Numbered from the stretch's first letter, positions 7,758 through 63,787 are shown. The stretch is DNA of 64,000 nt from an uncultured virus (IMG/VR IMGVR_UViG_3300042992_002627) (IMGVR_UViG_3300042992_002627); one strand, 5' to 3'. The notes: generated by a model from the letters alone, not told the origin. Numbers and translations: made by a program.

Positions 7758-8576
7758 ATGTACACAAAAGTAAATTTAACAAAAGCCGCCGGGATTAGTC
7801 CCGGGTCGGCTGCTCCAAAGAACACAATTGTTCTTGTGGAAGCTCAGGACTTAAACTTTCCTGAAAGCGACTCTAAAGGAGTCAAACTGATAGGGGTTCC
7901 TACGGTTAAAGAAGGTGGAAAATTCATCACGATTTACTCTACTAAGAGTAAAACCGAAGCATCAATGGAAACAGATGGTGACGAGGATATGATGAACTTT
8001 GCTTCTAAGTTTGTGGCTCAACATCCGGGTAACGGATTACCATTGAAAGAATTTGTACAAAACTGGACCGGAAAAGACATTGTTATTTTCCATAAAGCAT
8101 GTGGAGATAATTTCTGGGAAGTAATGGGAACACCTTGTTCACCTTTACAGTTGAAAGCTACCAAACAAGACAATAACGATGGTCGTTTTTACAACTTGTC
8201 GTTTGAGCCTTTTGCAAAATCAGGTTTTGTGCCTAAGCATTATGAAGGAGATGTTCCTTTTGAATTGCCAACAGCTATTGATGATATTGAAGCGGTACAC
8301 TTAACAGAGGAAAATGGAATCCAATACAAAGTTCCTGCGTTAGCTGTAACAGCTGCAATGGAAGTATCTACTATCGATTTAGAACACGGTGAGCACATTG
8401 TGTTTGAAGGTGGTGGCGGAGTTGCTCCTGCAACAATTGCTAACGGAGTTGCCGGTGCAGTTACTGTTCTTTTGAAAAATGGAACAACCTGGACAGCTTT
8501 GTCTGGAGCTACTATTCATTTCCAAGTGTTTCTTGCTGGTGCTACTAAATATTTAGTAGAACTTTCCAGAGCTTAA
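7758..8576 (+). CDS. Virion structural protein (probable major tail/tube protein)
   Basis: Co-transcribed with the capsid gene and followed by a terminator. Confidence 0.5.
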   Translation: MYTKVNLTKAAGISPGSAAPKNTIVLVEAQDLNFPESDSKGVKLIGVPTVKEGGKFITIYSTKSKTEASMETDGDEDMMNFASKFVAQHPGNGLPLKEFVQNWTGKDIVIFHKACGDNFWEVMGTPCSPLQLKATKQDNNDGRFYNLSFEPFAKSGFVPKHYEGDVPFELPTAIDDIEAVHLTEENGIQYKVPALAVTAAMEVSTIDLEHGEHIVFEGGGGVAPATIANGVAGAVTVLLKNGTTWTALSGATIHFQVFLAGATKYLVELSRA

Positions 8577-8594
8577 TTGTTCTATCATAAAGAT

Positions 8595-8620
8595 AAAACC
8601 CCGATTTGTCGGGGTTTTTT
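8595..8620 (+). terminator. Rho-independent terminator
   Basis: AAAACCCCGA-tttg-TCGGGGTTTTTT hairpin with T tract. Confidence 0.8.
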
Positions 8621-8634
8621 ATTTGTGTATGGCT

Positions 8635-8672
8635 CATGTTACAACTTTTGAAAAATGTAATTACAATATTTG
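8635..8672 (+). promoter_or_regulatory. Putative late promoter, packaging operon
   Basis: CATGTTACA-N21-AATATTTG. Confidence 0.7.
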
Positions 8673-8698
8673 AACTTTAAAAAATTAAAACAAAACCT

Positions 8699-9595
8699 AT
8701 GAGTAATCAATTTAAATTAATCGTCTTAGCATTTTTAGCCGCTGATTATGCGGATAAATATGAGCAATTCAATAAAGCATTTGAATTGTATAAACAAACG
8801 CCTGGTAAAAACATTGGATTAGAAACGAAGTTAAACCGAGTTGGGTTTACAGATGAGTTTCTTCAATCATTACTTTATGATTTACAGCAATTGAATGGTA
8901 TAACTGATTTGGAAATAGCTGAAAATAAAGTTTCTGGAATGAAAGGGAAATCGTCTCCAGAGTTGATTGATGTAGAGTTTGATAGAGTTGAAGCTAGTAC
9001 AGAAGCTAGTACAGAAGCTAGTACAGAAGCTCCTGAACAAAGTACAGAACCTTCTAAATTAAAAAATGAAGAATTGCTTGTTTTTGAACACGAAAAGACG
9101 TTTGAAGAAAAAACTTTGCGTGAAGAGTTTCCATTTTTAAACGATGCTAATTGTCCGGAAGTAATGTATGTGGTAGTAGGAAAAAGAATTACTGCTTTTA
9201 AACGTTACCAGGAACTGCATGAAAAGCTTCAGCAAGTAGACTCGGCAGAACCACAAGCAACGGAAGAGGAAAAAACACAATTGGTTCAGGAAACCGAAAA
9301 AGCCTATTCTGAAAATCAAGCTTTGTGGAATGAATTGAATCACTACGGAAGCACCGGAGAGATTTTAGGCAAACATGAATTATTCAAACAACACGTTTTG
9401 AAACGGGAAGTAGAGGAAATGAATAAGGAAGAGTTAGTGAAATTCATTTCCTCTTCAGCCACTTTTTTCTCAAGAAAAAAAGCAGAATTAGGCAAAGCAA
9501 AAGAGGCTGATAAAATTGCCAAAATTCAAACGGCTATTGATGAGCGTGAATACAAGTTAAAACTGGTAAATGAAAAATTAGGTGTCGGTCAATAA
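8699..9595 (+). CDS. Hypothetical coiled-coil phage protein
   Basis: 298-aa ORF, first gene of the packaging operon. Confidence 0.6.
   Translation: MSNQFKLIVLAFLAADYADKYEQFNKAFELYKQTPGKNIGLETKLNRVGFTDEFLQSLLYDLQQLNGITDLEIAENKVSGMKGKSSPELIDVEFDRVEASTEASTEASTEAPEQSTEPSKLKNEELLVFEHEKTFEEKTLREEFPFLNDANCPEVMYVVVGKRITAFKRYQELHEKLQQVDSAEPQATEEEKTQLVQETEKAYSENQALWNELNHYGSTGEILGKHELFKQHVLKREVEEMNKEELVKFISSSATFFSRKKAELGKAKEADKIAKIQTAIDEREYKLKLVNEKLGVGQ
8990..9031 (+). repeat. 12-bp tandem repeat GAAGCTAGTACA x3.5 (EAST peptide)
   Basis: Seen directly; in frame within the CDS. Confidence 0.85.
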
Positions 9596-29076: not shown

Positions 29077-30883
29077 TTTTGAGTTAGATATCAGTGGTTA
29101 TAAAATAACAGACACCGAAGAGAATCCGTGGTTCTTGGATGAAATTCCGTTGAAGTTTACATTTCCGTTTGAAATCGATTTGAACGACGAAAACGACCGC
29201 AATTTTGGTTTCATTTCCTCCTATTTAAATCAACCGGAAACAATTTACCCGTTGATTTTTTCCAATGGCGACCAAATGGAAGAAGCAGAATTGGAACTGG
29301 AGGAACTTACCGGAACAAGATTAAATGCAACCCTAACCTACGGATTAGAACAGTTGCCATCGTGGGACAAAAAGTTATCGGAATTGCCATTGGATAACTT
29401 TGATTTAGTGGGCGAAACCATTTACGAACATGCCAAAGATATTATTTCGCAAACATGGCCGGATGTAAACTATAATTTTCCGCAAATTCATATCGACACA
29501 ATTGATTCTGAAGAAGAGAATTGGCTCGATTTTGAGGGAAGAATCAACAACTATAACGGAACAAGCTTTCCGGCGAACTATGTTGATCCTATTGAATATA
29601 CTCCAGTCAACAAAACCATTCTTCAACCATTGCCATATTGGTTGCACATTTTAATCAAAGGATTTGAATTAGCGGGTTTAACTTTGGTTGGCGATATTTT
29701 AACGGATGCTCGTTTGCTTAAAAAATGTGTCTACACCCCAAAAGAATATTTTGTTAAACGGGAAAACCCTGAATTGGGAACGCTACTTTATGGTCAAGAT
29801 TACGAAAGTATTATTCACTCGGGCGGATATGGTGAGTTTGGCGAATACGAAGTAATCATTGATGTAAATATTTGGGGAAAATTCAATTTATTAGGAGTCA
29901 TCAATACCTTATCCGGTGGCTTTGGTTCTGGTGCTCCTGCTCCTGAAGCACAGATTTATTTCAACGGAACAAATATTTGGTCGTCTCCCGGAACGTTAGG
30001 AGGTGAAAACAATATGGATGTAGATGTGATTTTTACTTCTAATGAAACCGACCCTAATGAATTGCGAATTTGGTGTCGTTCAAAAGTAGTGACGGATTAT
30101 ACTATTTTTGATCTTCAACTATTGCCGTTGGAATTGTACGATAGCGAAGGAGATTCCATTCCAACCATCATCAACGAAAATAAAGTTGATTTAACCAAGG
30201 CCGTGCCTGACGTTACTTTTGGAGAATTTGTAAAAGCAACTTTGAATTGGTACAATTATGATTATGTTATTGATGGCGAAAAAGTAACTATGAATTTGGT
30301 AGAATCAGAAATCAATTATGATAATGCATTTGACTTATCAGCTTTTGAAGTCAAAGAACCATCACGCCGATTCAGAAAAAACTATTCTTATTATTTGAAA
30401 TTTGCAGAAGCAACGAATGATTTCGGCTATATATTTGAACAAGTATTTCAATCAAACGATGGTGTTTTCTATAGTGGTTTTAAAACGGACGAGAAAACTT
30501 CCACAATTGAAATCAATGCCTTGCCATTACCTTTGTTAGAACGAAAAGGAATTACAACAGCTCATGGCTTTGAAACGTCAGACACTAAAATATATGCCGT
30601 TATTTATGACGGATTGACAAACAATTTAAATTTAGCCAAATCTTCTGAAGAAATTCTGTTGCCGGCGGTTCATGCCACCAATTGGCAGAAATGGTTTGAT
30701 TTCAGAATCAATGCACAAGAATTCAAATGGCCGTTCAAAGCTTTTTTTGAACAACTGATAGGACTAAAGGCAAAGGGGAAAGTCTTTGCCTATGGCCGCT
30801 ATCACATTGTGAAGAGAATTCAAAAAACCGAAATCAAGCCGGAGCTGTATGAGATTGAAATTGAAACAGAGACTATGCCTTAA
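29054..30883 (+). CDS. Tail/baseplate hub protein
   Basis: EENPWF...FTFPF N-terminus; last gene of the tail operon. Confidence 0.55.
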   Translation: MRKLIHSNFELDISGYKITDTEENPWFLDEIPLKFTFPFEIDLNDENDRNFGFISSYLNQPETIYPLIFSNGDQMEEAELELEELTGTRLNATLTYGLEQLPSWDKKLSELPLDNFDLVGETIYEHAKDIISQTWPDVNYNFPQIHIDTIDSEEENWLDFEGRINNYNGTSFPANYVDPIEYTPVNKTILQPLPYWLHILIKGFELAGLTLVGDILTDARLLKKCVYTPKEYFVKRENPELGTLLYGQDYESIIHSGGYGEFGEYEVIIDVNIWGKFNLLGVINTLSGGFGSGAPAPEAQIYFNGTNIWSSPGTLGGENNMDVDVIFTSNETDPNELRIWCRSKVVTDYTIFDLQLLPLELYDSEGDSIPTIINENKVDLTKAVPDVTFGEFVKATLNWYNYDYVIDGEKVTMNLVESEINYDNAFDLSAFEVKEPSRRFRKNYSYYLKFAEATNDFGYIFEQVFQSNDGVFYSGFKTDEKTSTIEINALPLPLLERKGITTAHGFETSDTKIYAVIYDGLTNNLNLAKSSEEILLPAVHATNWQKWFDFRINAQEFKWPFKAFFEQLIGLKAKGKVFAYGRYHIVKRIQKTEIKPELYEIEIETETMP

Positions 30884-32003
30884 ACATGTTATCCAATAAA
30901 AAAAGTTCTTTATTGGCATCTTCTTGAATAATATGTGTGTAAATCATAGTGTGTTTAACGTTGGTGTGCCCTAATAACTGTTGTAATAATTCTAACTTGC
31001 TTCCTGATCGGAGCATCATAGTAGCAAAAGTATGACGGGCACAATGGAAAGAAATTCGTTTCGGAATCCCCAACGTTAGCATTATCCGTTTAATTTGACG
31101 ATTCAATTCCTCGTTAGTATATTTTTTTTCGAACAGTTCCGGGCAATGTTCAAGGATTCTTTTAGCCGTTTCATTTAAGGATAGAATTTTATCCTTATTT
31201 CCTTTAACCATAATCAGCGAGAATTCATTATTTTGAAAATCCTTTCTTTTTAATCGTTGGATATTTGAAATTCGCAATCCGGTCATGCAGCCAAAAAGAA
31301 AGTAACCCAAAACAATTTTATTGGTTTCATTAATAAAGTCAGAGAAATAAAATTTCATGGCTTTCTTGAGTTCTGCTTCATTTAGGTATTCACGATTACC
31401 CGTTGTTTTTCCTGGTTTAAGTTCGTCCAAATCAAACCGTAATCGAATGCCCGATTTTTGAGCAATCCGAAGAAACTTTTTGATTGCTCTAAGATTGGTT
31501 GAAATAGTAACTTCATTATTTTTCTTGACGTTTTTTAACCACAACCGATAATTTTTAAACCAGGTTAAATCCATTTCATGAAATGGAATATAATCTTTGT
31601 ATTCCCGTATTTTATTTAAAATACTTTTCAAAATCCGAACACGTCCGGCTCCTAAACTACTTTCTAATTTCAAGGATTCCTCATAAAACGAAATAAAATT
31701 GATTCTGGAGAGGTTGTTTAGAAACTCTTTCTTAATCAATTCCGGTGTCGCATAAATATCGGTTAATCGAAAAGCAATCTTTATATCATGGAGTTTAGAT
31801 TCAATTTTGTCCAATACAAGATTCTGATCACTAAGTTCTTTTGTGATTGGTTTGATTCGCTGTTTATCCGTTAACCAATTTTTAGGATGAACATGAATAC
31901 CGGTGTTTATAAATTCTCTGGTTCCATTTCCGGTGATGTGAATATAGATAGGATGCATTCCATCTTTATTCAAATCTTTTCTAAGTTTAAAGGAGGTGTT
32001 CAT
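30873..32003 (-). CDS. int: Phage integrase (tyrosine recombinase with Arm and SAM-like domains)
   Basis: TGLRIS, HCARHTFAT and LGH...MIY motifs; likely ATG at 32003. Confidence 0.9.
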   Translation of the reverse strand: MNTSFKLRKDLNKDGMHPIYIHITGNGTREFINTGIHVHPKNWLTDKQRIKPITKELSDQNLVLDKIESKLHDIKIAFRLTDIYATPELIKKEFLNNLSRINFISFYEESLKLESSLGAGRVRILKSILNKIREYKDYIPFHEMDLTWFKNYRLWLKNVKKNNEVTISTNLRAIKKFLRIAQKSGIRLRFDLDELKPGKTTGNREYLNEAELKKAMKFYFSDFINETNKIVLGYFLFGCMTGLRISNIQRLKRKDFQNNEFSLIMVKGNKDKILSLNETAKRILEHCPELFEKKYTNEELNRQIKRIMLTLGIPKRISFHCARHTFATMMLRSGSKLELLQQLLGHTNVKHTMIYTHIIQEDANKELFLLDNMFKA

Positions 32004-32155
32004 TTTTGATACGTAATTTTTGTGCGTATCAAGGAGCGTATCAAAAATAAGCTCGGTCTTAATTAAATTCATCTGTATTAGGTATTTAAAGTTTATAGTA
32101 TTCCCTGTGTTTATCACACGTAATACACTAATACAGATGATTCTCTCTTAATTTC

Positions 32156-40128: not shown

Positions 40129-40385
40129 AAGACCATCAAGAAACAAAAAAACCTCAAGACGACTGGAGGCTTGAAAAAATCGAACTAGAATTTAAATCTT
40201 ATGGAGAAAACAAAGGGAAGTATGAAGGGAGAATCAGATTTCAAAATGGCGAATTTGAAAGCTTTAGCTTCAAGATAAGGCCTGAAATGGCACAACCTTA
40301 CATTAGCATTATGAGCGAAGACATCGTTAAGTGTGCTGAATCTTTAGCTTCTCGCTTAATAGATTCTTTAGGACTACAAAAGTAA
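40125..40385 (+). CDS. Hypothetical protein
   Basis: Its stop codon TAA is part of the TAAC at the attC-like site. Confidence 0.5.
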   Translation: MKDHQETKKPQDDWRLEKIELEFKSYGENKGKYEGRIRFQNGEFESFSFKIRPEMAQPYISIMSEDIVKCAESLASRLIDSLGLQK

Positions 40386-40519
40386 CGTTTTGATTGGCGA
40401 TGGGCGGGCTTTTCAGCACAAAAGTTGGTTCGTAGAAATGAACTTTCGGCTATCACAAAACTGTCAAGCGGAGACGAAACCCCGCCTATTGCCAATTTGC
40501 TCGATTATATGCCGTTTTT
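40383..40519 (-). repeat. Solitary attC-like hairpin
   Basis: TAAC-gttttg-ATTGGCGATGGGCGGG...CCCGCCTATTGCCAAT; same architecture as the 57927-59490 sites. Confidence 0.6.
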
Positions 40520-43726: not shown

Positions 43727-45409
43727 ATGCCAACAACAAATCCATATCCGTTAAACATTCCTGCAAAGGTAAATTCGCCGGAGCTTCTTGCATGGTTCCA
43801 GCAGTTCGGAATTGATAAATACCTATCTGCTGAAGAAATCAATAAAATGAGTGCAGCTCTGCAATTTTTATATGAAAATTTAGGAGGTGGAGCATTGAGT
43901 CAATCAGGCATCACCACCCTAGGCACAATAACCATAGTAGATGACGAAGTAAACTTTGAAGACTTTGCCTGGAAGATTGACGGCGTTGACTATGAACTAG
44001 ATGCTCCAATTACCCGCGTGTTACCTTTAGCTGCTGAAGGAATGTACCGAACTCACACAGCTTACTTGACCACAGACAATGACATTCTTATTGCAGAAGG
44101 ACCGGAAGATAGTGAAGTCACCACAGAACCATCTATACCAACCGGAACATTACGTCTTCGAGCTTTCAATGTATTTGGTGAAGTGATTACTGCTGGACCT
44201 GGAGAGAGTTTGCCGTATGATATCAATTTATTGGATGAATTATTATCGCTTCCGGAAGATCCTGATTATTTTTTAATAAACAAAGAAGGTGTTGATTATA
44301 GAATAAAAAGATATTTTTTGACATTCTTTGATAAATTGAGAATGAAAACAAATTCATCTTATGTGCCATCTTTAGTTTCTGGCTACACTGATTTCTATAT
44401 GCTAAACAATAGGTTGTGTGCATACTTCACATCATCACATATTCAGATTGAAGGTAATACTGAAGCTGGAAGTAGTAGTGTTTTGAAAATGCCATTTGCT
44501 GCCGGTACAGCTGAAATAAATAGACCAGTATCTAATATAACAACTAGTCTTACCCTAGCTGCAACTCATAATTCAAGAACAGTTAGAGTTTCACCTATTG
44601 CAGCAAGCCCTGTTGATATTACTATTCCAAACCCATTAAGTGGTGACTATCTTTTTAATATAGTAAACGAGAGTGATGTAGTTGTTAAATTAATTCCTTC
44701 AGGTTATTTGATAAATGGTGTTGCTGAACCTTTTATTGTATTAGAAAAAAATGTCAATTATTGGGTTAAACGTGTAGCGACCAATAACTGGATTTTGAGT
44801 CCTAAGTCTGGTGCAACAACAGTTCCTTCAGCAACAGATTCACTAGCCGGAATAATGAAATTGTATAACTCATTCGGCATAAACACCGATGGTTCAATCC
44901 GTCAAGATTTCTTTACATCAACAATTAATAAAATTGAAAACTTCTTCATCTCAAAACAAAACGGAACATTTGGAAGTCATACTGGTGACTTGCTGGAAAC
45001 TGTTTTAAGCTCTGACGATGTTGTTGGTGGTTTTTTTGTAGCTGGTGACACGATGCTTATTTTAATTTCAGGAGAAAAATCAGCAGCTGTGGCGAATGTT
45101 ACTTATAGAATAAGATTTGGAACCACCGGAACAACTTCAGATGAATTAATTGCTACTTATACCGGAAACAATCGAGGTTTAAATATGCAAAGAGTAAATA
45201 TTTCATTTTTAAGCGGGAATTTAGTTCGTGTTATCTCTGCAACAACATCATTAATATCTGATGTTTTAGGAACTAGTGCTGTGTTTTCAAATGTTTCATT
45301 GACTTATTCATCTGCATTTAAAATAACTATCACAGCTCAATTAGGTAATGCAACAGAAACTGCTTCTATTAGAACTTTAAGAGCTTCAAAAATTAAATCC
45401 ATAACATAA
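43727..45409 (+). CDS. Tail fibre / receptor-binding protein
   Basis: 560 aa, S/T/G-rich beta composition, VPSATDSLAGIMKLY linker typical of fibres. Confidence 0.7.
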   Translation: MPTTNPYPLNIPAKVNSPELLAWFQQFGIDKYLSAEEINKMSAALQFLYENLGGGALSQSGITTLGTITIVDDEVNFEDFAWKIDGVDYELDAPITRVLPLAAEGMYRTHTAYLTTDNDILIAEGPEDSEVTTEPSIPTGTLRLRAFNVFGEVITAGPGESLPYDINLLDELLSLPEDPDYFLINKEGVDYRIKRYFLTFFDKLRMKTNSSYVPSLVSGYTDFYMLNNRLCAYFTSSHIQIEGNTEAGSSSVLKMPFAAGTAEINRPVSNITTSLTLAATHNSRTVRVSPIAASPVDITIPNPLSGDYLFNIVNESDVVVKLIPSGYLINGVAEPFIVLEKNVNYWVKRVATNNWILSPKSGATTVPSATDSLAGIMKLYNSFGINTDGSIRQDFFTSTINKIENFFISKQNGTFGSHTGDLLETVLSSDDVVGGFFVAGDTMLILISGEKSAAVANVTYRIRFGTTGTTSDELIATYTGNNRGLNMQRVNISFLSGNLVRVISATTSLISDVLGTSAVFSNVSLTYSSAFKITITAQLGNATETASIRTLRASKIKSIT

Positions 45410-45546
45410 TTATGTATTACAAAACAGACGAATCAGGAAACTATTTAGGAATAAAATCAGAAACGAATGAGGGTTGGGAGTTTTTCTCTACAACACCAGT
45501 GCCAACTGATATTGCTAGAGTAAGAAATGAAAACGGAACTTGGGTT
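45182..45546 (+). repeat. Direct repeat copy 2
   Basis: Matches window 1-~365. Confidence 0.95.
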
Positions 45547-46005
45547 TCAGCAATTTCTAATGAAGAATTAATTATTGAATATACTAAACGTATTCAAAAT
45601 GCTTTCACTTATTTAAGAAGAAGAGCTTTAGCATCATCTATTAATAAACAAGGTGAATGGGAATATATCTATGAACAGGCCGAACAGTATAAATTAAAAT
45701 ATAAAGTTGCCAAAGGTGAAATTGTAAACACTTCTGTTGAAGCTATGATTGCTGACGAAGCAAATGATTTTGGTATTACAAGCGAAAATATGAATGTTTT
45801 GATAATTCAAATGTATGAAGCTGGTGAGTTAGCTTATAATCAATTCACAGCAATGATTGAAAGGGGTCGAACAAAAGCATTGACAATGCTTGAAACGGCT
45901 AATTTTGATAAAGCATTACAAATTATTTTAATAATGGAAACCGTGCCGGAAAAATTGACAATGGAACAAGCAGAAGTATTGACAATTCAAATGATTTCTA
46001 TTTAA
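45412..46005 (+). CDS. Tail-fibre-associated protein
   Basis: Shares its N-terminus with 231..965; unrelated helical C-terminus. Confidence 0.5.
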   Translation: MYYKTDESGNYLGIKSETNEGWEFFSTTPVPTDIARVRNENGTWVSAISNEELIIEYTKRIQNAFTYLRRRALASSINKQGEWEYIYEQAEQYKLKYKVAKGEIVNTSVEAMIADEANDFGITSENMNVLIIQMYEAGELAYNQFTAMIERGRTKALTMLETANFDKALQIILIMETVPEKLTMEQAEVLTIQMISI

Positions 46006-49271: not shown

Positions 49272-49278
49272 TTGATGA

Positions 49279-49303
49279 AGTCCGCAATTTGCGGGCTTTT
49301 TTT
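49279..49303 (+). terminator. Terminator after the tRNA fragment
   Basis: AGTCCGCA-att-TGCGGGCT-TTTTT. Confidence 0.65.
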
Positions 49304-49388
49304 GTTTTATGTGGTTTTGTTTTTTTATATTTGGCGACATAAAACGACATATTTTGAAACAAAATCGCAACTTTTTAGCAACTCAATT

Positions 49389-50606
49389 ATGAAAATTGAA
49401 TTTGAGCTTCAGGATTATCGACCTGAAAAACCTGATGGTTATCCGTTGGTGTTGAAAATTTCTCATAGCAAAAAAAGAATACAAAAAACCATTTGTTATT
49501 GTAAGCCAAATCACTTTTCGAATGAAAATAAAATGGTCAATAGTAAGCATCCGGACTTTGATTTTTTGGCTCCTATGATGATGGAACTGAAGATAAAAGC
49601 TAAAAAGATTAAACTTTCGGGCCTTACGGATGTGAACCAGGTGATGGAAGAATTATTTCGATTGGAAAAAACCGACACTGATTTTATTCAGTTTGCTGCT
49701 GATTTGATGGCTGAAATGAGTGAATTGGCAGCGGTATATGATAAACAAGGTAATATTTCGGCTCGGAATAAGCTATTGGGTAACGTGAAAGTTTATGCTA
49801 ATGTGATGAAACGTTTTAAAGAAATGCATCGCAATTGTATGATTTCGCAAATAGATTATAATTTATTGATGCGATTTAGAAACTATCATCTTGGCATCGG
49901 GAACCAGCGTGCAACGGTTCATTTGTATCTTCGGACGCTCCGGGCAATTTATAATAAATGTTTATTGAAATATGCAATTCCTGATAAAAAACCCTTTGTA
50001 GGTGTTTTTAATAACTTAAAGGTAAAAAGTTACCATAACAAAAAGAAATACATCACAAAAGAAGCTGTGCAATTATTGGAAGGTTATTTTGTTGCCGGTG
50101 AAACACAAAAATACATTGATTTGTGGTTGTTGCAGTTTTATTTTGGTGGATGTGATTTGATTGATCTATATTATTTACCGAAAACTCACTTTCGTAAAAA
50201 CCGTATTTATTTTGAGCGAAGCAAAACTGATACAGGGCTTTTGATTGATTTGGCAATTCATGACAAAGCAGCGGCCCGAATTGAAAAATTTTTACAAAAT
50301 AATGATAGTTTGTTTTTGGTGGTTGGTCGAAAAGATGTAAAAGGTTATGAAGGTTATCGCCGGCGATATACTAAGGCAATTTGTGAAGCTCAAAAACAGT
50401 TAGGAATTGAAGTGATGCCAATGGGTGGAAACTTGGGTGTGAAGGTTGCCCGGCATACGTTTGCGAATATTGCTAAAAACTTATTGATAGATCCTGATTT
50501 GATACGTGAATTAATGGGCCATGAACGCGATGGTGTAGATAATTACTATAAAGATCGCTTTCCGGAAAAAGTGAGGGATGAAGCGTTGTTTAGGATTGTG
50601 GGTTAG
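49389..50606 (+). CDS. int: Phage integrase (tyrosine recombinase)
   Basis: Arm and SAM-like N-terminus; ARHTFAN, LMGH and NYY motifs; likely ATG at 49389. Confidence 0.85.
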   Translation: MKIEFELQDYRPEKPDGYPLVLKISHSKKRIQKTICYCKPNHFSNENKMVNSKHPDFDFLAPMMMELKIKAKKIKLSGLTDVNQVMEELFRLEKTDTDFIQFAADLMAEMSELAAVYDKQGNISARNKLLGNVKVYANVMKRFKEMHRNCMISQIDYNLLMRFRNYHLGIGNQRATVHLYLRTLRAIYNKCLLKYAIPDKKPFVGVFNNLKVKSYHNKKKYITKEAVQLLEGYFVAGETQKYIDLWLLQFYFGGCDLIDLYYLPKTHFRKNRIYFERSKTDTGLLIDLAIHDKAAARIEKFLQNNDSLFLVVGRKDVKGYEGYRRRYTKAICEAQKQLGIEVMPMGGNLGVKVARHTFANIAKNLLIDPDLIRELMGHERDGVDNYYKDRFPEKVRDEALFRIVG

Positions 50607-57073: not shown

Positions 57074-57170
57074 AATCTCTACGAGGTAGCGAGGTCGTAC
57101 ATCGCTGCTTAGTCAGGATTTTACTCAGGGTTAAAAAAAGTGAGGGGGGGTTAATTTAATAATAATAGCT

Positions 57171-57617
57171 ATGAATGAAATGAAAGTTGTTTCAATTGGA
57201 AAAGGTTCTGACAATTTATTGATTGTTCCGAAGGCTCCTGTTTATTTGAATGATGAAGCTAAAAAACATTACAAAGAAATGGGAAACATTTTAGCAAAAA
57301 ACAACCGAATGAAAGAAATCTTTTTGCCGGCTTTAATTATTTATGCTGAATCTATGGCCCAGTTTGAATTTGCGATTTCTGAAATTAGAAGGAAAAATAA
57401 AGAAAAACAAGGTAGTGGTTATGTGCAAAAATTTGCAACCGGAGCACAAAACATTTCTGTGGAAGTAAGCTTGAAAAAATCTGCCATTGATGATTTATTA
57501 AAATGCTTTAAAATTTTTGGTATGGATCCAAAATCAGAAAAAGAATTAAAAGACATTACCGACCCAAATCAAGGCAACTTGTTTGAAGAAATGTTGAAAA
57601 TGAAAAAGGGCCAATAG
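57171..57617 (+). CDS. terS: Terminase small subunit, P27 family
   Basis: KAPVYLNDEAKKHY...FGMDPKS. Confidence 0.75.
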   Translation: MNEMKVVSIGKGSDNLLIVPKAPVYLNDEAKKHYKEMGNILAKNNRMKEIFLPALIIYAESMAQFEFAISEIRRKNKEKQGSGYVQKFATGAQNISVEVSLKKSAIDDLLKCFKIFGMDPKSEKELKDITDPNQGNLFEEMLKMKKGQ

Positions 57618-57644
57618 GCAACATTACCGAAAAACTAAAGCTTT

Positions 57645-57926
57645 TTGAATACAAAAAAAATATCAGCAGCAATGTTGATCTGGATTGCTTTTAAATTTTT
57701 TAAAATGAAAATCGGACAAAAAATGGTATTTGATTTAGAAGCCTGGATAGGTGAAGAAATGATTATGGAAGAACATACAGCTGCAATTTTAGACATCTGT
57801 ATTGATCCACTTGGAAGGCATGAATCAAAATGCATTGTGGTTGTCAATTCTGAAAAATATGGAATTCCTTTTTCACAAATCAAACAAGTATTGCCGGCAA
57901 ATGGGGAACAGTTAGTTCTTTTATAA
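57645..57926 (+). CDS. Hypothetical protein
   Basis: Its stop codon abuts the first attC-like site; true start uncertain. Confidence 0.4.
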   Translation: MNTKKISAAMLIWIAFKFFKMKIGQKMVFDLEAWIGEEMIMEEHTAAILDICIDPLGRHESKCIVVVNSEKYGIPFSQIKQVLPANGEQLVLL

Positions 57927-58067
57927 TTGCCAACGGCATCTACTTTGCGAAGTGGCGGATTTGGAACACCACAGCTTCAATTTAGCACTACCGTTGATTA
58001 GAATTACAAGGGTTAAAATTAGCACTGCACCCGCCATTTTGCAAAGCAAGTGTTAGCAAATCGTTTT
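57927..58067 (-). repeat. attC-like site 1
   Basis: GCCAAC...CTTTGCGAAGTGGCGG (57943-58) / CCGCCATTTTGCAAAG (58031-46)...GTTAGC. Confidence 0.75.
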
Positions 58068-58071
58068 CATT

Positions 58072-58338
58072 ATGTTTACCAATATAAAAATAGAAGAAGT
58101 TTTAATTTTTGCAAAGCAAGGGATTCAAGGATTTACCACTGATGATGGTGATATTGTTGAACCTAAAACAAAAGAGGAAGTGCTAGAAGATATAGAATTG
58201 ATTGATGATTTGTTGTCAATTATGAAATCAAAAATGCTCTTAAATAAGAAAAAAGGGTTAAAAGCCGTAATAGATGGACGATTAGCGTTAGCAGTTGCCC
58301 CCGATTCAGTTAGAATAGGTGGTACGAATCATTTTTAA
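58072..58338 (+). CDS. Cassette 1 hypothetical protein
   Basis: Fills the space between GTTAGCAAA and TTTGCCAAC. Confidence 0.6.
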   Translation: MFTNIKIEEVLIFAKQGIQGFTTDDGDIVEPKTKEEVLEDIELIDDLLSIMKSKMLLNKKKGLKAVIDGRLALAVAPDSVRIGGTNHF

Positions 58339-58408
58339 AATGTTTGCCAACGGTTCTCGGCTATATTTAGGCTGGGATTATGAAAACGAAACTTTAAATT
58401 AAAACAAA

Positions 58409-58738
58409 ATGAAAGTAGAAATTACAAAAATTATGCAAAGTACCGAAATACTAAACGAAATTAAAAATCAATTAGAACAATTAGAGCATAAAGGCTATGA
58501 TAAAAATAGTTTTAAAAGCGGTTACCTTTTAGGATATGCCAAAGCGTTGCAATTGCAACAACCTGATGTTATAAAATCGGTTTGCGGTTCGTTGCCGATT
58601 TCAAAGGTGGTTTTCTTTGAGTTGAAAAAAGGGAAATACCTTGCAAGTAATGGGGTTGAAGTAACAACGGAATTTATACTAAAAAACGAACACGCTATAT
58701 TTCACGATAATGGTTATGTGATTGTCGAAAGGCAATGA
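58409..58738 (+). CDS. Cassette 2 hypothetical protein (reads through a junction)
   Basis: The ORF spans the GTT junction at 58568-58596. Confidence 0.55.
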   Translation: MKVEITKIMQSTEILNEIKNQLEQLEHKGYDKNSFKSGYLLGYAKALQLQQPDVIKSVCGSLPISKVVFFELKKGKYLASNGVEVTTEFILKNEHAIFHDNGYVIVERQ

Positions 58739-58876
58739 CCGCTAACGTTGAGCATATACGAAGGCAGGGCTTTTAAATACCAAAGCTCGGTTACTTCCGA
58801 AAGCTCAATAGAAATACAAAAGTTGAAAGTTTGCACGTCTGCCCTGCTTTTGTATATGCATTGTTGGCAGTAGTGC
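58731..58876 (-). repeat. attC-like site 3
   Basis: GCTAAC...GCATATACGAAGGCAGGGC (58752-70) / GCCCTGCTTTTGTATATGC (58841-59)...GTTGGC. Confidence 0.8.
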
Positions 58877-58906
58877 TTTTTATTTACAAACAAAAATTAA
58901 ACAAAT

Positions 58907-59326
58907 ATGAAAATAGTAAAAATATTATTAGACGATGGAACAAGTAGAGAAGTAGGAGAAATTAAACCTTTATCTCACTTTGAAGAAAAATACCCTGAAA
59001 ATAATAAATGGTATTGGCAAAGGTGTTACGAAAGACAATTCAATAATTTTGAAGATGATATTATTGAATTTCTAAATGAAAGTAATGTTGAAGAATACGC
59101 AAAAGACCACTTAAATTTAGTTGAAGAAGACGATGTGGAAGAAAAAGATATTTCTGATTTTACTGATGCTGAAATTTTAGAAGAAATGAAAGATAGAAAA
59201 TTAAATAAAGGAGGGAATATAATTACTTCTAGTTTTATTGAAAGATTTGAAAACATTGTAAAAGCAGAAAACATTATTTTATTAGACAATTTACTTTCTG
59301 AATTAGAAACTAAACTCAATCTTTAG
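58907..59326 (+). CDS. Cassette 3 acidic hypothetical protein
   Basis: Lies between GTTGGCAGTAGTGC and GCATTACTGCCAAC. Confidence 0.6.
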   Translation: MKIVKILLDDGTSREVGEIKPLSHFEEKYPENNKWYWQRCYERQFNNFEDDIIEFLNESNVEEYAKDHLNLVEEDDVEEKDISDFTDAEILEEMKDRKLNKGGNIITSSFIERFENIVKAENIILLDNLLSELETKLNL

Positions 59327-59337
59327 CGACTCCAACG

Positions 59338-59490
59338 GCATTACTGCCAACGTTCCGCAGCTTGTGGTCAGTTGCGGATTTAAGCACCGAGCCACAAAAA
59401 AATAAACAATAACTTTAAATTTAAAAACAATGAATAAAAATAATTCCAAAGACCCGCAATTGCCACAAACTGCTGTTAGCAAATCGGCTT
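59338..59490 (-). repeat. attC-like site 4
   Basis: GCCAAC...GCAGCTTGTGGTCAGTTGCGG (59357-77) / CCGCAATTGCCACAAACTGC (59454-73)...GTTAGC. Confidence 0.8.
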
Positions 59491-59870
59491 TAAAATTTGA
59501 ATACGGATTTAATTCTGTGAATGGAATTGTAAAAAAGAGGTACTATTTAAGCGAAATACCGTTTATGCACGATAAATGCGATGTTTGGCAAATCTTACCA
59601 GTTGTTTATGTTAGGCAATTTACTGGATTTACAGACAAAAAAGAAGTTGAAATTTATCAAGGCGATATTTGTAAATACCATAAAAATACAAGTAAATGGT
59701 TAGTATCATATCATTTTGAAGTAAGGTTTAGAAATGGTGCTTTTTATGCTTATTGGGAACGTGAAATGATGGGAAAATTAGAGCAACATTGGGATTTACT
59801 TTCTCAAAAAGATATGCGAAATATTAGAGTGGTTTCAGATATTTTTCAATCAGCGCAAACTACGTCATAA
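59430..59870 (+). CDS. Cassette 4 YopX-family protein
   Basis: QFTGFTDKKEVEIYQGDI...V.F..GAF motif. Confidence 0.7.
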   Translation: MNKNNSKDPQLPQTAVSKSALKFEYGFNSVNGIVKKRYYLSEIPFMHDKCDVWQILPVVYVRQFTGFTDKKEVEIYQGDICKYHKNTSKWLVSYHFEVRFRNGAFYAYWEREMMGKLEQHWDLLSQKDMRNIRVVSDIFQSAQTTS

Positions 59871-59935
59871 GCTGTTTGCTAACTACTATATGTAAAAACC
59901 ATTTATAAACCTTAACAAAATAAACACTACACGCC

Positions 59936-60739
59936 ATGAACATCGGAAAGTACCTCGAAATGTATTCCGACGATTTAAAGTTAAAAAACTATTCGTCAAA
60001 CACAATTGAAAATTACAAATCACAAGTGGGATTATTTTTAAAACACTTTGATAAAGTAGCAACCAAGCCATCTGAGATATCAGAAAAACAAATAAAAGAA
60101 TGGTTGCTGATGGCCAACTCAATTAACGGCAGAAAACACAGAATATCTGCCGTGAAATTGTTTTACAAACTAACAGGAAAACAGCCTTTGAAGTTCCGTC
60201 ACATTGAATATCCGCGGTCCGAAAAGAAGTTACCACAAATAATTGACAAAACCTATCTATTGGAATCAATCAATAAAATACAAAACAAAAAACACAAAGC
60301 CATCATTGCTTTGGCATACTCAACCGGAATGCGAGTTTCCGAAGTATGTAATTTGTTGATTGCCGATATCGACAGCAAACGAATGATTATTACCATCCGA
60401 CAATCAAAAGGGAAAAAAGACCGCATTGTGGCATTGTCATCAAAAATACTTGAAATACTTCGCGAGTACTTCAAAGAATACAAGCCAAAAACATTTTTAT
60501 TCAACGGTCAATTTGGTGATCAGTATTCACACACGAGCTGCAACCAAATAGTAAAACAATATTTAGGAAAAGAATTTCACTTTCATCAGCTCCGGCACTC
60601 AAATGCGACAGCACTTTTAGAAGCGGGAACCGATTTGCGAATCATACAAAAACACCTGGGCCACGCGTCTAGTAAAACAACAGAAATCTACACCCACGTC
60701 AGCACCAATTTATTACAATCAATGGCATTACCAATTTAA
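59936..60739 (+). CDS. Integron-integrase-like tyrosine recombinase (short; SAM-like N-domain, no Arm domain)
   Basis: YSxNTxxxY N-terminus; TGMRVSE, KGKKDR, HQLRHSNATALLEAGTDLR and LGH..SKTTEIYTHV, with all catalytic residues present. Confidence 0.85.
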   Translation: MNIGKYLEMYSDDLKLKNYSSNTIENYKSQVGLFLKHFDKVATKPSEISEKQIKEWLLMANSINGRKHRISAVKLFYKLTGKQPLKFRHIEYPRSEKKLPQIIDKTYLLESINKIQNKKHKAIIALAYSTGMRVSEVCNLLIADIDSKRMIITIRQSKGKKDRIVALSSKILEILREYFKEYKPKTFLFNGQFGDQYSHTSCNQIVKQYLGKEFHFHQLRHSNATALLEAGTDLRIIQKHLGHASSKTTEIYTHVSTNLLQSMALPI

Positions 60740-60749
60740 AAACTCAAAG

Positions 60750-60983
60750 ATGAAAATCTTCTTCACCTCCTTTTTTCAAATCGGCTTAGTAGCAATCAAT
60801 ACCTACATGATCACGCAATTAATATGGCTCGGAATCTTTATAGTTTCATTTTTAATATCGCTATTGTGGTGTTTCAATGTGTCAAAAATATCCGTATCAA
60901 CCAGGGCAGCCAAATTAATCTACGCAACCGGTGCAGGAACCGGAGCTGTAACCGGACTTTTAATCTTAAAACTATTTATTTAA
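60750..60983 (+). CDS. Small membrane protein
   Basis: Three hydrophobic segments. Confidence 0.5.
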   Translation: MKIFFTSFFQIGLVAINTYMITQLIWLGIFIVSFLISLLWCFNVSKISVSTRAAKLIYATGAGTGAVTGLLILKLFI

Positions 60984-61171
60984 CTAAAAATAAAGTCATG
61001 CCAGAAACTGAAAAAGACAACTTGATCAAAAATCTTTACAAGTGTATCGAAGAACAAAAAGCGACAATAGAAATGCTTTACAAAGAAATAGATTTATTAA
61101 AAAAACCGACTAAAAAATGAAACCATATTGTTGATGTCAACAAAAAGGTTTTTAACTAAAAAACAAAAACA

Positions 61172-61435
61172 ATGAACCCAAAACAATTTGCACAAACATC
61201 CCACCGCATTGCTGTATTATCGGCATTGTTGGTTGAATCGTTGGAAGATATCAATGCATCATCCGCTGCAGCTTTAGATTTAAAGCAAAAAGCCAAAGAA
61301 ATCATTCCGCATTGTGAAAGAATGCTCGAAGAAGTTTACACCGCCAAAAACATCACTTCCGGCACCTACTTTAACGAGCTTTCAAATAAAGTAGATACCG
61401 TAATCCGTAAAAATTTTGAAATAATAACGATGTAA
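61172..61435 (+). CDS. Hypothetical protein
   Basis: ORF with A-rich leader. Confidence 0.55.
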   Translation: MNPKQFAQTSHRIAVLSALLVESLEDINASSAAALDLKQKAKEIIPHCERMLEEVYTAKNITSGTYFNELSNKVDTVIRKNFEIITM

Positions 61436-61437
61436 CC

Positions 61438-61830
61438 ATGAAAAAACACACCTTCGAAACCTATCAAAAAAAAATAATTGATTCAAACATCAAAAACCTT
61501 GAACACGAGCCAATTGTAAAACTTTGTTATGTTTTTTATTGTTTCATCACTGAAATTTATGAAAATTATATTGAAGATTGCGGAATCCCGTATTCTCCCA
61601 GCAGTGTAAATCGCGAATATTGCGAAAAGGTACTTAGTGTTTACCGAACATTATTTAATCGAATTCCTTCTTTAAACCAGGATCAATTGAACTGCTTTAT
61701 TCTTAGTATAAACGGTAATGATTTTAGTTATTACCAAGCACTTATGAATGTTAGATATAAAATTGAAGATGCTGAAAGATTTAAACCCGAAAACTTCGAC
61801 TTGTTTCACGATCAATTTAAAGCTTACTAA
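61438..61830 (+). CDS. Hypothetical protein
   Basis: Coupled ORF. Confidence 0.5.
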   Translation: MKKHTFETYQKKIIDSNIKNLEHEPIVKLCYVFYCFITEIYENYIEDCGIPYSPSSVNREYCEKVLSVYRTLFNRIPSLNQDQLNCFILSINGNDFSYYQALMNVRYKIEDAERFKPENFDLFHDQFKAY

Positions 61831-61831
61831 A

Positions 61832-62071
61832 ATGAGCCTTTTAAAACTACTTAACGAAGCAAAAAAACTCTACAGCGAAACCCGTGGAGCTGCATTTGTC
61901 ATCACCGGTTCCAACTGTGGTGAATATTGGTTCTTAAAAATGCCTTCCATTGGTGAAACCTTTGAAAGTGTGCATTTAGAAACCGTATTGGAAGATTATA
62001 TTGACCTGGTACTTAACAACCGTGTCAAAGTGGCGAAAAGAAAAAACACAACAAAAGAATTCCGACTATAA
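61832..62071 (+). CDS. Hypothetical protein (homologue of 39691..39930)
   Basis: ATG at 61832; shared motif with the phage A gene. Confidence 0.6.
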   Translation: MSLLKLLNEAKKLYSETRGAAFVITGSNCGEYWFLKMPSIGETFESVHLETVLEDYIDLVLNNRVKVAKRKNTTKEFRL

Positions 62072-63787
62072 ATGCAACCAGCCCAATCCCAACTCGAATC
62101 AATCCCTTTTCAATATGCAGCCGCCGTTCGTTCCGGTGAAATTACTGTTGGAAAAAAAATAAAACTTGCTGTCGAGCGGTTTTATCAATGGATAGAAACC
62201 GCTGAAGCCGATGGTTATCACCTCGATCATGCAACTGGCATGTTTGCAGTTACGTTCTTTGAAAACTTCCTGAACCATACCGAAGGAAAAATGGCGGGAA
62301 AACCGTTTGTGTTGGCACCATTTCAGCAATTTACCATTTACAACGTGTTCGGGTGGAAAGATGCCACCGGCAAACGCCGAATCAAAACCATTTACGACAA
62401 ACGAGCCAAGAAAAACGGAAAAACGGCTGAAATGGCAGGTGTGGCATTATATTGCATGTCGTTTGATGAAGAAATCAAAGCTCAGGTGTTTATTGGGGCC
62501 ACAAAAGAAGAACAGGCACGCCTTTGTTGGAATGCGGCCAAAGATTTCATTGATTCCTTTGTGGCAAACACTCGTTTAAAGCAATTGGGCTTTCGGACCA
62601 TGCAAAACAAGGTGATTTTCGAACCTACCAACAGTTTTCTTCGTCCGTTGGGTGGCGATAGTAAAACCCAGGATGGAATTAACAGCCATTTATCGATAAT
62701 TGATGAATATCACGCTCATGCAACCGATGGCGTGAAAGAAAACCTTGAATCATCAGCAGTTCAACGCTTGCAACCTTTAACTTGGCACATCACAACAGCC
62801 GGAACTAACATTGCATCGGTGTGTAAAAATTATGAAGATTCGGTTATTGAAGTGTTGGAAGGCCGAAAAAAAGACGACCGCCTTTGGATTATGATCCATG
62901 ATTTAGATGAAGATGACGATTGGAACGATGAAAGTAAATGGATAAAAGCCAATCCATTATTAAACCAAGGACTTTCAATCGACAATATTCGCGATGAATA
63001 CCTTAAATGTGTCAATCAACCTTCTAAAATTCCGAATTTCAAAACCAAACATCTAAACATGTGGGTCGATGCTCCAAAAATTTGGATTCCAACCGAAATA
63101 TGGCAAAAAAATAAAATTTCCGAAATACCGTTATCTAAGTTCCAAAAACATGGAAGCTATGCAGCTCTCGATTTGTCAACCACTACAGATTTAACAGCAT
63201 TTGCTATACTTTCCGAACCCGATGAACACGAAAAGCGATATTTAAAAGTATTACTGTTTTGTCCTGAAAAAACAATCGAAAGACGAAGCAAAGAAGACCG
63301 TGTTCCTTACAAATATTGGGCAGATGCAGGTTTTATCATTGCAACACCCGGTGATGTTGTAGATCATGCCGTTGTAGAAGATAGAATTCGCATTGAATAC
63401 CACAAACATGCAGTAAAACGCATCGAAATAGATCGCTATTTGGCAACAAATATCACATCAAATTTACAAGAAGAAGGTTTTGAAGTGGCCTATTTTACAC
63501 AAACAATTACAAATTATTCGTTTCCAACCAAAGAATTTGAACGCCTTGTTTACTTAAATAAAATAATTCACGACGGTAATCCCGTTTTAGAATGGATGCT
63601 TTCCGGGTGTGTGGTGATTTCCGACACAAACGAAAACATCCGAATATCAAAATCACGTTCACACGCAGGAGGTAAGAGAATCGATGGAATAATAGCTTCA
63701 ATCATGGCATTAGGCGGTTCGTTATCACCAAAAGAAGAAAAATCAAAATACGAAAAACCAATGGATGAATCCGAAATCTATATATAA
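62072..63787 (+). CDS. terL: Terminase large subunit (Terminase_1 / HK97-like)
   Basis: KKNGKT Walker A, IIDEYH Walker B, ITTAG, LDLSTTTDLTA and KRIDG motifs. Confidence 0.95.
   Translation: MQPAQSQLESIPFQYAAAVRSGEITVGKKIKLAVERFYQWIETAEADGYHLDHATGMFAVTFFENFLNHTEGKMAGKPFVLAPFQQFTIYNVFGWKDATGKRRIKTIYDKRAKKNGKTAEMAGVALYCMSFDEEIKAQVFIGATKEEQARLCWNAAKDFIDSFVANTRLKQLGFRTMQNKVIFEPTNSFLRPLGGDSKTQDGINSHLSIIDEYHAHATDGVKENLESSAVQRLQPLTWHITTAGTNIASVCKNYEDSVIEVLEGRKKDDRLWIMIHDLDEDDDWNDESKWIKANPLLNQGLSIDNIRDEYLKCVNQPSKIPNFKTKHLNMWVDAPKIWIPTEIWQKNKISEIPLSKFQKHGSYAALDLSTTTDLTAFAILSEPDEHEKRYLKVLLFCPEKTIERRSKEDRVPYKYWADAGFIIATPGDVVDHAVVEDRIRIEYHKHAVKRIEIDRYLATNITSNLQEEGFEVAYFTQTITNYSFPTKEFERLVYLNKIIHDGNPVLEWMLSGCVVISDTNENIRISKSRSHAGGKRIDGIIASIMALGGSLSPKEEKSKYEKPMDESEIYI

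Follow-up and report, generated by a model that had tools for sequence, protein, structure and literature searches.

The 64,000-nucleotide stretch of DNA analysed here (the window) derives from an uncultured virus (IMG/VR IMGVR_UViG_3300042992_002627) and carries, between the genes for the terminase small subunit (terS) and the terminase large subunit (terL), a series of small open reading frames (ORFs) separated by junctions and followed by a tyrosine recombinase gene. An earlier note, made from the sequence alone, had proposed that positions 57,927 to 60,739 form a non-canonical integron-like system. The comparisons below lead us to conclude, with a probability of about 0.78, that this is an integron-like gene-cassette platform with a recombinase other than the integron integrase IntI, carried by a temperate Flavobacterium-type phage.

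The array and its recombinase

The elements of the array, in order along the plus strand, are as follows.

57925..58064, plus strand: J1, an attC-like site (AATTGCCAAC, 8-nt spacer, 16-bp stem of 57943-58 with 58031-46, loop, GTTAGCAAATCG), with boxes of the TGCCAAC type at 57928-34 and of the GTTAGCA/GTTGGCA type at 58052-58, the site spanning 57928-58058
57934..58350, plus strand: cassette 1, from the C of the J1 AAC to the AA of J2, with hairpin J1 and an ORF at 58072-58338
58345..58351, plus strand: J2, a 5' box TGCCAAC alone, its stem lost or rearranged
58351..58745, plus strand: cassette 2, degenerate, with an ORF at 58409-58738 (109 amino acids, no family)
58734..58875, plus strand: J3, an attC-like site (GCTAAC at 58741-46, 5-nt spacer, 19-bp stem of 58752-70 with 58841-59, GTTGGCAGTAGTG, 3' box at 58863-69)
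58746..59350, plus strand: cassette 3, with hairpin J3 and an ORF at 58907-59326 (139 amino acids)
59339..59487, plus strand: J4, an attC-like site (TGCCAAC at 59345-51, 5-nt spacer, bulged stem of ~20 bp, GTTAGCAAATCG, 3' box at 59475-81)
59351..59882, plus strand: cassette 4, with hairpin J4 and a YopX-family ORF at 59430-59870 (146 amino acids; Pfam YopX, 2.5e-11)
59877..59935, plus strand: docking site, attI-like, TGCTAAC followed by the conserved TACTATATGTAAAAACC..., without a hairpin
59936..60739, plus strand: Xer-like tyrosine recombinase of 267 amino acids (Pfam PF00589, 4.2e-40, and PF13495), ORF intact

Each of the four units contains one plus-strand ORF (88, 109, 139 and 146 amino acids), in agreement with the earlier note; the 88-residue product of cassette 1 belongs to no family, and the loop of J4 contains the start codon of the following ORF. 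J1, J3 and J4 have loops of 70-80 nt, imperfect stems of 16-20 bp and 3' boxes that read GTTAGCA or GTTGGCA. They form the best three inter-arm stems (−15.9, −15.2 and −14.3 kcal/mol) among 2253 plus-strand YAAC..GTTD pairs, and are also the top three matches in the 64 kb to a covariance model trained on 19 sites from other viral contigs, none of them from the window (J4, 81.1 bits, E 8.1e-17; J1, 59.3 bits, 1.2e-11; J3, 52.4 bits, 5.5e-10). These junctions, which had been described as YAAC, hairpin and GTTR, are true members of a large family. The octamer TGCYAACG is present nine times in the window where 2.4 occurrences are expected, and none of 100 shuffled sequences reaches nine. Only two other GCYAAC..GTTRGC pairs were found (7486-7640 and 8267-8344); both lie inside coding sequence and outside the 14 best inter-arm stems.

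The description of J2 as rearranged is a fair one: only its 5' half is present, no stem folds, and it is missing both from the best stem pairs and from the covariance-model matches in the window. A long hairpin at this position (58346-58584, or to 58571) was ruled out, as no stem supports it. The last GCTAAC, at 59878-83, forms no hairpin on folding, and the intact recombinase ORF begins 52 nt later at 59936, both as had been noted. The ORF of cassette 2 has two points, 58421 and 58563, at which contigs from other lake samples diverge. The segment 58410-58563 (~150 nt, the 5' half of the 109-amino acid ORF) has a summed contig depth 3-8 times that of its neighbours in all four lake metagenomes; it behaves like a module common to many phages, and the ORF may be chimeric.

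The recombinase consists of a SAM-like core-binding domain and a catalytic domain, and has no arm-binding domain. Its catalytic motifs are present, and in a PDB alignment they coincide with conserved blocks of XerA and IntI4; the best relatives of solved structure are the archaeal XerA proteins 4a8e and 5hxy, followed by IntI4, and the database labels for the family are XerD or tyrosine-type recombinase. It scores below every NCBIfam cut-off, including those of the profiles for XerA (NF040815, 184 of 220 bits), XerC (162 of 335) and XerD (158 of 330) and those for integron integrases (TIGR02249, 134 of 265 bits with the match split in two stretches; NF011946, 83 of 435). The alignment with IntI4 (2a3v) splits, such that query residues 12-180 correspond to chain residues 11-182 and query residues 212-257 to chain residues 262-307. 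The break, in which query residues 180-212 face chain residues 182-262, shows that the IntI-specific insertion of ~48 residues is absent. In VchIntIA the insertion, which is the I2 helix region of the catalytic domain and is required for attC recombination, contacts extrahelical bases. Smyshlyaev et al. (2021) describe it as indispensable to integrons, and its absence means that the system is not a canonical integron, so that the earlier designation as non-canonical is well founded.

A site family beside the recombinase gene

Relatives of the recombinase are encoded in 229 viral-contig stretches, and 80 loci with 49-89% identity were kept for comparison. At E≤1e-3 the covariance model identifies 162 sites in these loci, all of them on the recombinase strand, with 159 upstream of the gene and three downstream. 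Up to nine sites are present at a single locus (L044), and a model match is present in 38 of the 56 loci whose upstream sequence exceeds 1 kb. A motif/hairpin scan gives a similar picture, with 140 sites on the recombinase strand (134 upstream and six downstream), 55 on the opposite strand and three in shuffled sequence; the motif/hairpin scans missed the three sites of the window itself through a single-hairpin filter, and these three were added by hand. A hairpin scan requiring a paired AAC/GTT helix found almost no sites. The hairpins are therefore strictly linked in strand and side to homologous recombinase genes, lying on the same strand and to the 5' side as in the window. The three downstream model matches are all in one locus (L077, 8858-10411, plus strand), 2.9-4.4 kb past the gene, and may be a second array.

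The sites share an architecture rather than a sequence. On the plus strand they read ATT-N5-YAAC, G plus ~4 unpaired nucleotides, an imperfect stem of ~20 bp, a variable loop, the return stem, 1-2 unpaired nucleotides and GTTR-N5-AGT. The 5' spacer is 5 nt long in 81 of 143 sites and the 3' side has 1-2 nt in 97 of 143, with a mean stem of ~20 bp. Cognate arms fold with a mean of −14.4 kcal/mol compared to −5.8 kcal/mol for arms swapped between sites, and none of 611 swapped combinations reaches the cognate median. In an alignment of the 19 uniform sites 93.4% of the cells are paired, compared with 63.3% after shuffling (none of 500 shuffles reaching the observed value) and 33-47% when slid; all but one of the 20 stem pairs show compensatory changes, a single G.T pair is the same in all 19 sites, and the fifth stem position is mismatched in 12 of them. 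This set replaced an earlier MAFFT alignment of 50 sites in which the 5' arm was misaligned and RNAalifold gave only five pairs. Covariation of the stems confirms that it is structure, not sequence, that is conserved, as proposed from the window's few junctions. The plus strand folds better than the minus strand at 97 of 123 sites. Canonical attC boxes are infrequent (RYYYAAC in 7 of 143 sites, GTTRRRY in 9, both in one), so that the common part consists of the YAAC and GTTR cores only, and Rfam contains no matching family, its sole match being a chance microRNA hairpin at E 0.59.

The docking site is similarly conserved. The motif YAAC-TAYTATAT(G/A)TA is found ~45-60 nt upstream of the recombinase start in nearly all loci, and 69 of 81 loci fit AAC-N4-ATWT upstream of the gene; sequences to the left of the AAC are variable, and in the window they belong to the last cassette. 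Related genes are present in three cultured North Sea phages, Polaribacter phage Freya_10, Cellulophaga phage Ingeline_1 and Polaribacter phage Leef_1, as an "integrase" of ~260-290 amino acids that is 33-38% identical to the window's recombinase and is the only gene labelled integrase in the stretch examined. All three have GCTAAC and a related conserved sequence ~60-75 nt upstream of this gene. Leef_1 also contains a 176-nt hairpin (5591-5766, by the motif/hairpin scan) whose 3' flank is complementary to that of the GCTAAC site; none of the three phages has a covariance-model match at E≤1e-3. Freya isolates differ in length by up to 5 kb and in the position of the gene by up to 4.1 kb, which may reflect the start point of circular records. 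The small "integrases" of cultured flavobacterial phages have been taken as signs of lysogeny (Bartlau et al. 2021).

These features invite the alternative that the recombinase and its upstream site form primarily an Xer- or Cre-like module for multimer resolution or for a second integration, with the hairpin units being selfish elements that have accumulated there, much as Xer-exploiting elements accumulate at dif by imitating it with folded single-stranded DNA. The enzyme is a simple two-domain Xer-type protein without an arm-binding domain, is nearest to XerA, XerC and XerD in profile searches and to XerA in the PDB, and has homologues labelled integrase beside an upstream GCTAAC in Leef, Freya and Ingeline. 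Folded single strands are moreover established Xer substrates, as in CTXphi and further elements making use of XerCD at dif. However, Xer systems use one chromosomal dif and host enzymes, and lack ordered one-gene cassette arrays with covarying hairpins; the cassettes described here are single same-strand ORFs without mobility genes, arranged as in integrons in arrays of at least nine sites (L044), and by eye no second inverted binding arm is evident in the docking sequence. The mechanism would in any case barely differ from that of a cassette platform and does not exclude one. We regard this explanation as distinctly unlikely, and favour the integron-like platform.

Cassette boundaries and the proposed exchange

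The nine nucleotides beyond the GTTR of a site match the complement of the next site's 5' flank at a mean of 5.68 of 9 positions, with at least seven matches in 55% of cases (n=75), whereas comparison with the site's own 5' flank gives 3.41 of 9 (at least seven in 1%) and random pairs give 3.06 of 9 (2%). The flank of the last hairpin matches that of the docking site at seven or more of nine positions in 27 of 52 loci. A recurrent form of these flanks is ATT-N5-T(AAC) against (GTT)A-N5-AGT, including T.G wobble. The window follows the same rule: J1 has a 3' flank (GTTAGCAAATCG) complementary to the 5' flank of J2, that of J3 (GTTGGCAGTAGTGC) matches the complement of the J4 5' flank at 13 of 14 positions, and that of J4 is complementary to the docking-site flank as well. 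Because the flanks pair with the next site and not with their own, the sites in an array are hybrids of two units, which would be the footprint expected of circular cassettes recombining at the AAC/GTT core.

Boundaries between shared and unrelated sequences fall at the same position. Two viral loci (L006 and L034) have in common a 1027-nt unit with 92.9% identity that starts at the TAAC/G of a hairpin (the slash marking the boundary) and ends at GATAAC/, after which another hairpin follows in L006 and docking sequence in L034. Likewise, L026 and L030 share an 835-nt unit, 95% identical, that ends at TGCCAAC/ and is followed by a hairpin in one and docking sequence in the other. Strict clustering of the inter-site units yielded one common pair and a looser BLAST search eight segments, two of which were inspected in detail. 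In Logan contigs from four lake metagenomes, terS is covered without a break up to 57933 and the recombinase from 59878-59881 onwards. Inside the array, contigs end or diverge at 57932/33, 58055, 58742/43/47 and 59880/83, continuing into other hairpins or ORFs; parts that the contigs of these runs cover thinly or leave uncovered do not count as absent. In run X3 one contig links cassette 3 directly to the docking site, joining 59348 to 59881 with a 3-nt ambiguity equal to AAC, and skipping 59349-59880 such that J4 and the YopX ORF are deleted. Two other joints (58881/58885 to 59338, and 59433 to 59879) were not used, having less than 30 nt on one side. The cassette mosaicism thus breaks at AAC, and relatives differ in cassette number as well as content, both of which had been anticipated from the window alone. 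All the comparisons among relatives that the earlier note had suggested turned out in its favour.

The units between sites are mostly simple. There are 117 of no more than 1600 nt; 114 contain an ORF of at least 49 amino acids, and in 112 of these 114 the longest ORF is on the plus strand. These ORFs have a median of 105 amino acids, and 39 of the 112 plus-strand ORFs begin in the upstream hairpin, as at J4. A Pfam match is present in 18 of 114 units, and includes two DNA methylases, Mom, two PAPS-reductase-like proteins, GNAT, a dATP/dGTP pyrophosphohydrolase, two YopX proteins and several DUFs; the few cassettes of relatives with a known family thus encode mostly DNA-modification enzymes. 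A tblastn comparison of the window's cassette proteins with the 80 viral loci found no homologue other than a weak YopX match; the cassette pool must therefore be large.

We infer from these data that the recombinase is the catalyst, that folded single-stranded DNA is its substrate, and that the window's copy is active. In the mechanism we propose, a cassette is composed of one hairpin site and one small ORF, and it is the plus strand that folds. The 267-residue recombinase would bind the long stem together with the R box (ATT..TAA / TTA..AGT) and exchange strands at AA/C, with one subunit sitting on the 12-bp R stem and cleaving at AA/C. The spacer bubble would serve as the overlap region, and the long stem, with its fixed G.T pair and mismatch, could place the second subunit and set the choice of strand. 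Recombination of two successive sites would release a cassette as a circle, and the docking site (GCTAAC/TACTATATGTA...), 52 nt before the recombinase gene, would be its point of insertion. The benefit to the phage is likely to be a fast turnover of accessory genes.

Several observations weigh against this interpretation. No circle or live insertion was seen in the data, which are contigs and unable to show circles; the earlier phrase "working gene-capture platform" stands as to the platform, whereas no recombination event that would justify "working" was directly observed. The joint from 59348 to 59881 is suggestive only, being a single contig with a short side of 30 nt and 90% likeness, in the weak range. 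Without the IntI insertion, recognition of hairpins by this enzyme would need another solution, and the stemless J2, missed by the model, indicates that at least one unit in the window has decayed. Two boundaries lie at the GTT side, namely the contig end at 58055 and the left end of the L026/L030 homology, upstream of which the hairpins differ, so that there may be more than one crossover point; both boundaries could reflect an occasional exchange at the other core or on the other strand. Among the 56 loci whose upstream sequence exceeds 1 kb, 18 lack a model match; 15 of these have a hairpin of other length by the motif/hairpin scan, and L020, L036 and L068 have none. Finally, the scans demanded YAAC and GTTR, so that the invariance of these letters is partly by construction, and the 19 aligned sites were selected because their geometry in single-sequence folding was uniform.

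The hairpins lie between co-directional ORFs on the sense strand, and their G.T wobbles, which would be G.U in RNA, favour the transcribed strand; attC sites, too, are thought to be weak terminators (Qi et al. 2023, PMC9892861). A role as RNA, in termination, processing or stabilisation, with a merely coincidental link to the recombinase, nevertheless seems very improbable, since it cannot explain the homology breaks at AAC, the complementarity to the next site's flank, the conserved hairpin-less AAC site or the contig joints, and Rfam has no matching family. The variant in which the hairpins are copies of a miniature inverted-repeat transposon is equally improbable, as the stems differ between copies, unlike those of a transposon family.

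Chromosomal arrays, known systems and phage setting

Recombinases 40-50% identical to that of the window (by tblastn) are also encoded in Bacteroidota chromosomes. Their ORFs are ~375 amino acids long in four of six loci with ORFs listed, with a range of 285-480 amino acids across the six. The phage-trained model, which thus finds sites in bacterial genomes as well as phages, identifies 85 sites in the genome loci, with 84 of them on the opposite strand, downstream of the gene and after each co-directional ORF; the lone plus-strand match is in a phage-like locus (L085). There are nine sites in Flavobacterium saccharophilum (L112) and eight in each of two other loci (L153 and L146). Such mirrored arrays (L112, L114, L142, L144, L146, L153, L160 and others, at ~8001-8800) occur in Flavobacterium, Winogradskyella, Seonamhaeicola, Pseudotamlana, Flaviramulus, Aequorivita and others, a layout like that of rAID-1 outside the gut Bacteroidales.

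The occurrence of one site family beside phage and chromosomal recombinases raises the question of which enzyme acts on the phage sites. They and their cassettes could be real and the phage enzyme inert or not the catalyst, with the longer recombinases of host chromosomal arrays acting in its place during infection or lysogeny and the phage array a passive passenger or relic. The 84 chromosomal model matches and the decay of J2 would fit with this. But the phage arrays keep their strand and side relative to their own gene in 159 of 162 matches, the docking motif is kept with the gene in 69 of 81 loci, which is hard to explain if the gene is irrelevant, and the phage gene itself is intact with its catalytic motifs. 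We consider a host-enzyme explanation unlikely and prefer a platform served by the phage's own recombinase.

Integrons are the textbook example of a device that captures single genes. Their attC sites have RYYYAAC (R'') and GTTRRRY (R') boxes, and the integron itself is defined by IntI with its insertion. The phage arrays resemble classical integrons (class 1, Vibrio cholerae, IntI4 2a3v) in their single-ORF cassettes, in imperfect hairpins that conserve structure around AAC and GTT cores, in the unpaired spacer between the outer (R) and inner (L) stems, in hybrid sites of which one strand folds better, and in a hairpin-less docking site beside the 5' end of the recombinase gene, which is divergent in this reading. 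They differ in having a 267-residue enzyme that lacks the ~48-residue insertion and falls below the integron-integrase cut-offs, in boxes of the form ATT-N5-YAAC and GTTR-N5-AGT rather than RYYYAAC and GTTRRRY, in a longer R stem, and in a location within a phage late operon. Each ORF is encoded on the folding strand and has the hairpin at its 5' end, the reverse of the classical arrangement. The plus-strand order in the phage is (site, ORF)n, docking site, recombinase gene, whereas the bottom strand of a classical integron reads (attC, antisense ORF)n, attI, intI, and a chromosomal Bacteroidota locus reads (site, antisense ORF)n followed by an inverted recombinase gene. The integron geometry claimed earlier is thus present, in that the better-folding plus strand is the bottom strand when the recombinase gene is read as divergent and the docking sequence begins right after AAC, beside the gene; this claim holds, with the qualification that the cassette ORFs are opposite to the classical direction relative to the sites.

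The statement that integrons are rarely reported in phages or Bacteroidota needs updating. Integrons are described as rare in Bacteroidetes (Néron et al. 2022). Canonical integron pieces and integrase-less attC clusters (CALINs) have been found in phages with IntegronFinder and HattCI, including an array in a Polaribacter (Flavobacteriaceae) phage with cassettes encoding DNA methyltransferases (Qi et al. 2023, PMC9892861). These are attC-type arrays in phages as well, and the cassettes found in relatives of the window's locus likewise include DNA methylases; the CALINs are, however, read as canonical pieces lacking an integrase, and the parts of that account drawn on here describe no Xer-like partner or docking site, whereas the platform in the window is complete. 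A second precedent is rAID-1, described from 226 of 423 Bacteroidales genomes (Ross et al. 2019, bioRxiv 10.1101/471110). There, orphan immunity genes separated by repeats "reminiscent of integrons" follow an XerD-family recombinase gene in the same direction. The criteria for rAID-1 are an XerD-like recombinase with over 44% identity to the B. fragilis reference (BF9343_RS08045), placed 5' of at least two co-directional genes, and repeats between these genes. An Xer-type recombinase with small-gene arrays and repetitive intergenic sequences is common to rAID-1, the window and the viral and chromosomal loci. The chromosomal loci (L112, L114, L137 and L160) fit the rAID-1 layout, with the recombinase 5' of co-directional genes and the sites after each ORF in reverse orientation. 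The phage does not, as its array is upstream of the gene; it also differs in its 267-residue enzyme, in its phage host and in having no cassette that matches an immunity family in Pfam. The passages of Ross et al. (2019) considered here give neither a hairpin model nor a crossover point. Our search, which extended to literature outside subscription journals and supplements, found no published account of a complete phage platform with an Xer-like enzyme.

A broader proposal, for which we would give slightly less than even odds, is that Bacteroidota and their phages carry a second, IntI-free integron lineage, in which a compact Xer-type enzyme reads long hairpins and the phage and chromosomal rAID-like arrays use one site family. 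In that case a single reservoir of one-gene cassettes would serve phages and hosts alike, which would trade genes for defence, counter-defence and DNA modification across the virus-host boundary. The phage platform would by itself place integron logic (folded sites, circular cassettes, a docking site and ordered arrays) with a plain Xer-like enzyme, in a phage packaging operon and in dozens of viral contigs. It would offer a concrete mechanism for the known hypervariable small-gene stretches of phage genomes, which the common site family ties to the integron-like rAID arrays of Bacteroidota. It also raises the structural question of how an enzyme without the I2 region recognises hairpins and chooses a strand, and it affects annotation, as such genes are now labelled XerD or integrase and read as a sign of lysogeny.

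The array is embedded in phage genes, with the following neighbours.

57171..57617, plus strand: terS (Pfam Terminase_4, 9.7e-10; PHROG 83), left backbone of the array
57645..57926, plus strand: ORF of 93 amino acids without a family, either backbone or a unit with a lost hairpin, its 3' end forming the J1 5' flank
62072..63787, plus strand: terL (Pfam TerL_ATPase and TerL_nuclease; PHROG 9, 4.8e-142), right backbone

The stem-pair scan and the covariance model of the window found no hairpin site 5' of the 93-amino acid ORF. The part from ~45.4 to 64 kb encodes a holin, an endolysin, a 444-amino acid integrase, a repressor, DnaD-like and DnaB-like replication genes and an HNH protein, followed by terS, the small ORFs of the array, the 267-residue recombinase, four further small ORFs and terL; from its gene content this part reads as a temperate phage in unintegrated gene order. 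The 444-amino acid protein (49272-50606) is a second, lysogeny-type integrase, and its presence agrees with the earlier note. The closest isolated phages in a GenBank DNA search infect Flavobacterium, with short and weak matches, and by protein the best match among isolated phages is 38% identical. The metagenome runs containing the array stretch are from lake water.

The remainder of the window belongs to another phage. Over positions 1-45211 the window agrees at 100% identity with 74-45284 of G001, a complete viral record of 45,284 bp that has terminal repeats, and 45109-45573 are 93.5% like the start of that record; beyond this point the sequence is unrelated to it and is that of a different temperate phage. 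A 560-amino acid ORF (43727-45409) crosses the join of the two phage parts. The window is therefore a composite, being either a chimeric assembly through a shared gene or two related phages end to end. The record, which is the nearest one, contains nothing resembling window positions 57100-62100. The only tyrosine recombinase noticed in this first phage is a 414-amino acid integrase-like ORF (30873-32117, minus strand), and no small Xer-like enzyme was seen there. It does contain a lone, degenerate member of the site family at 40373-40516 on the plus strand (model score 34 bits, E 1.3e-5), located between convergent genes, with GTAACG, a good stem and a 3' box that reads ATTA rather than GTTA.

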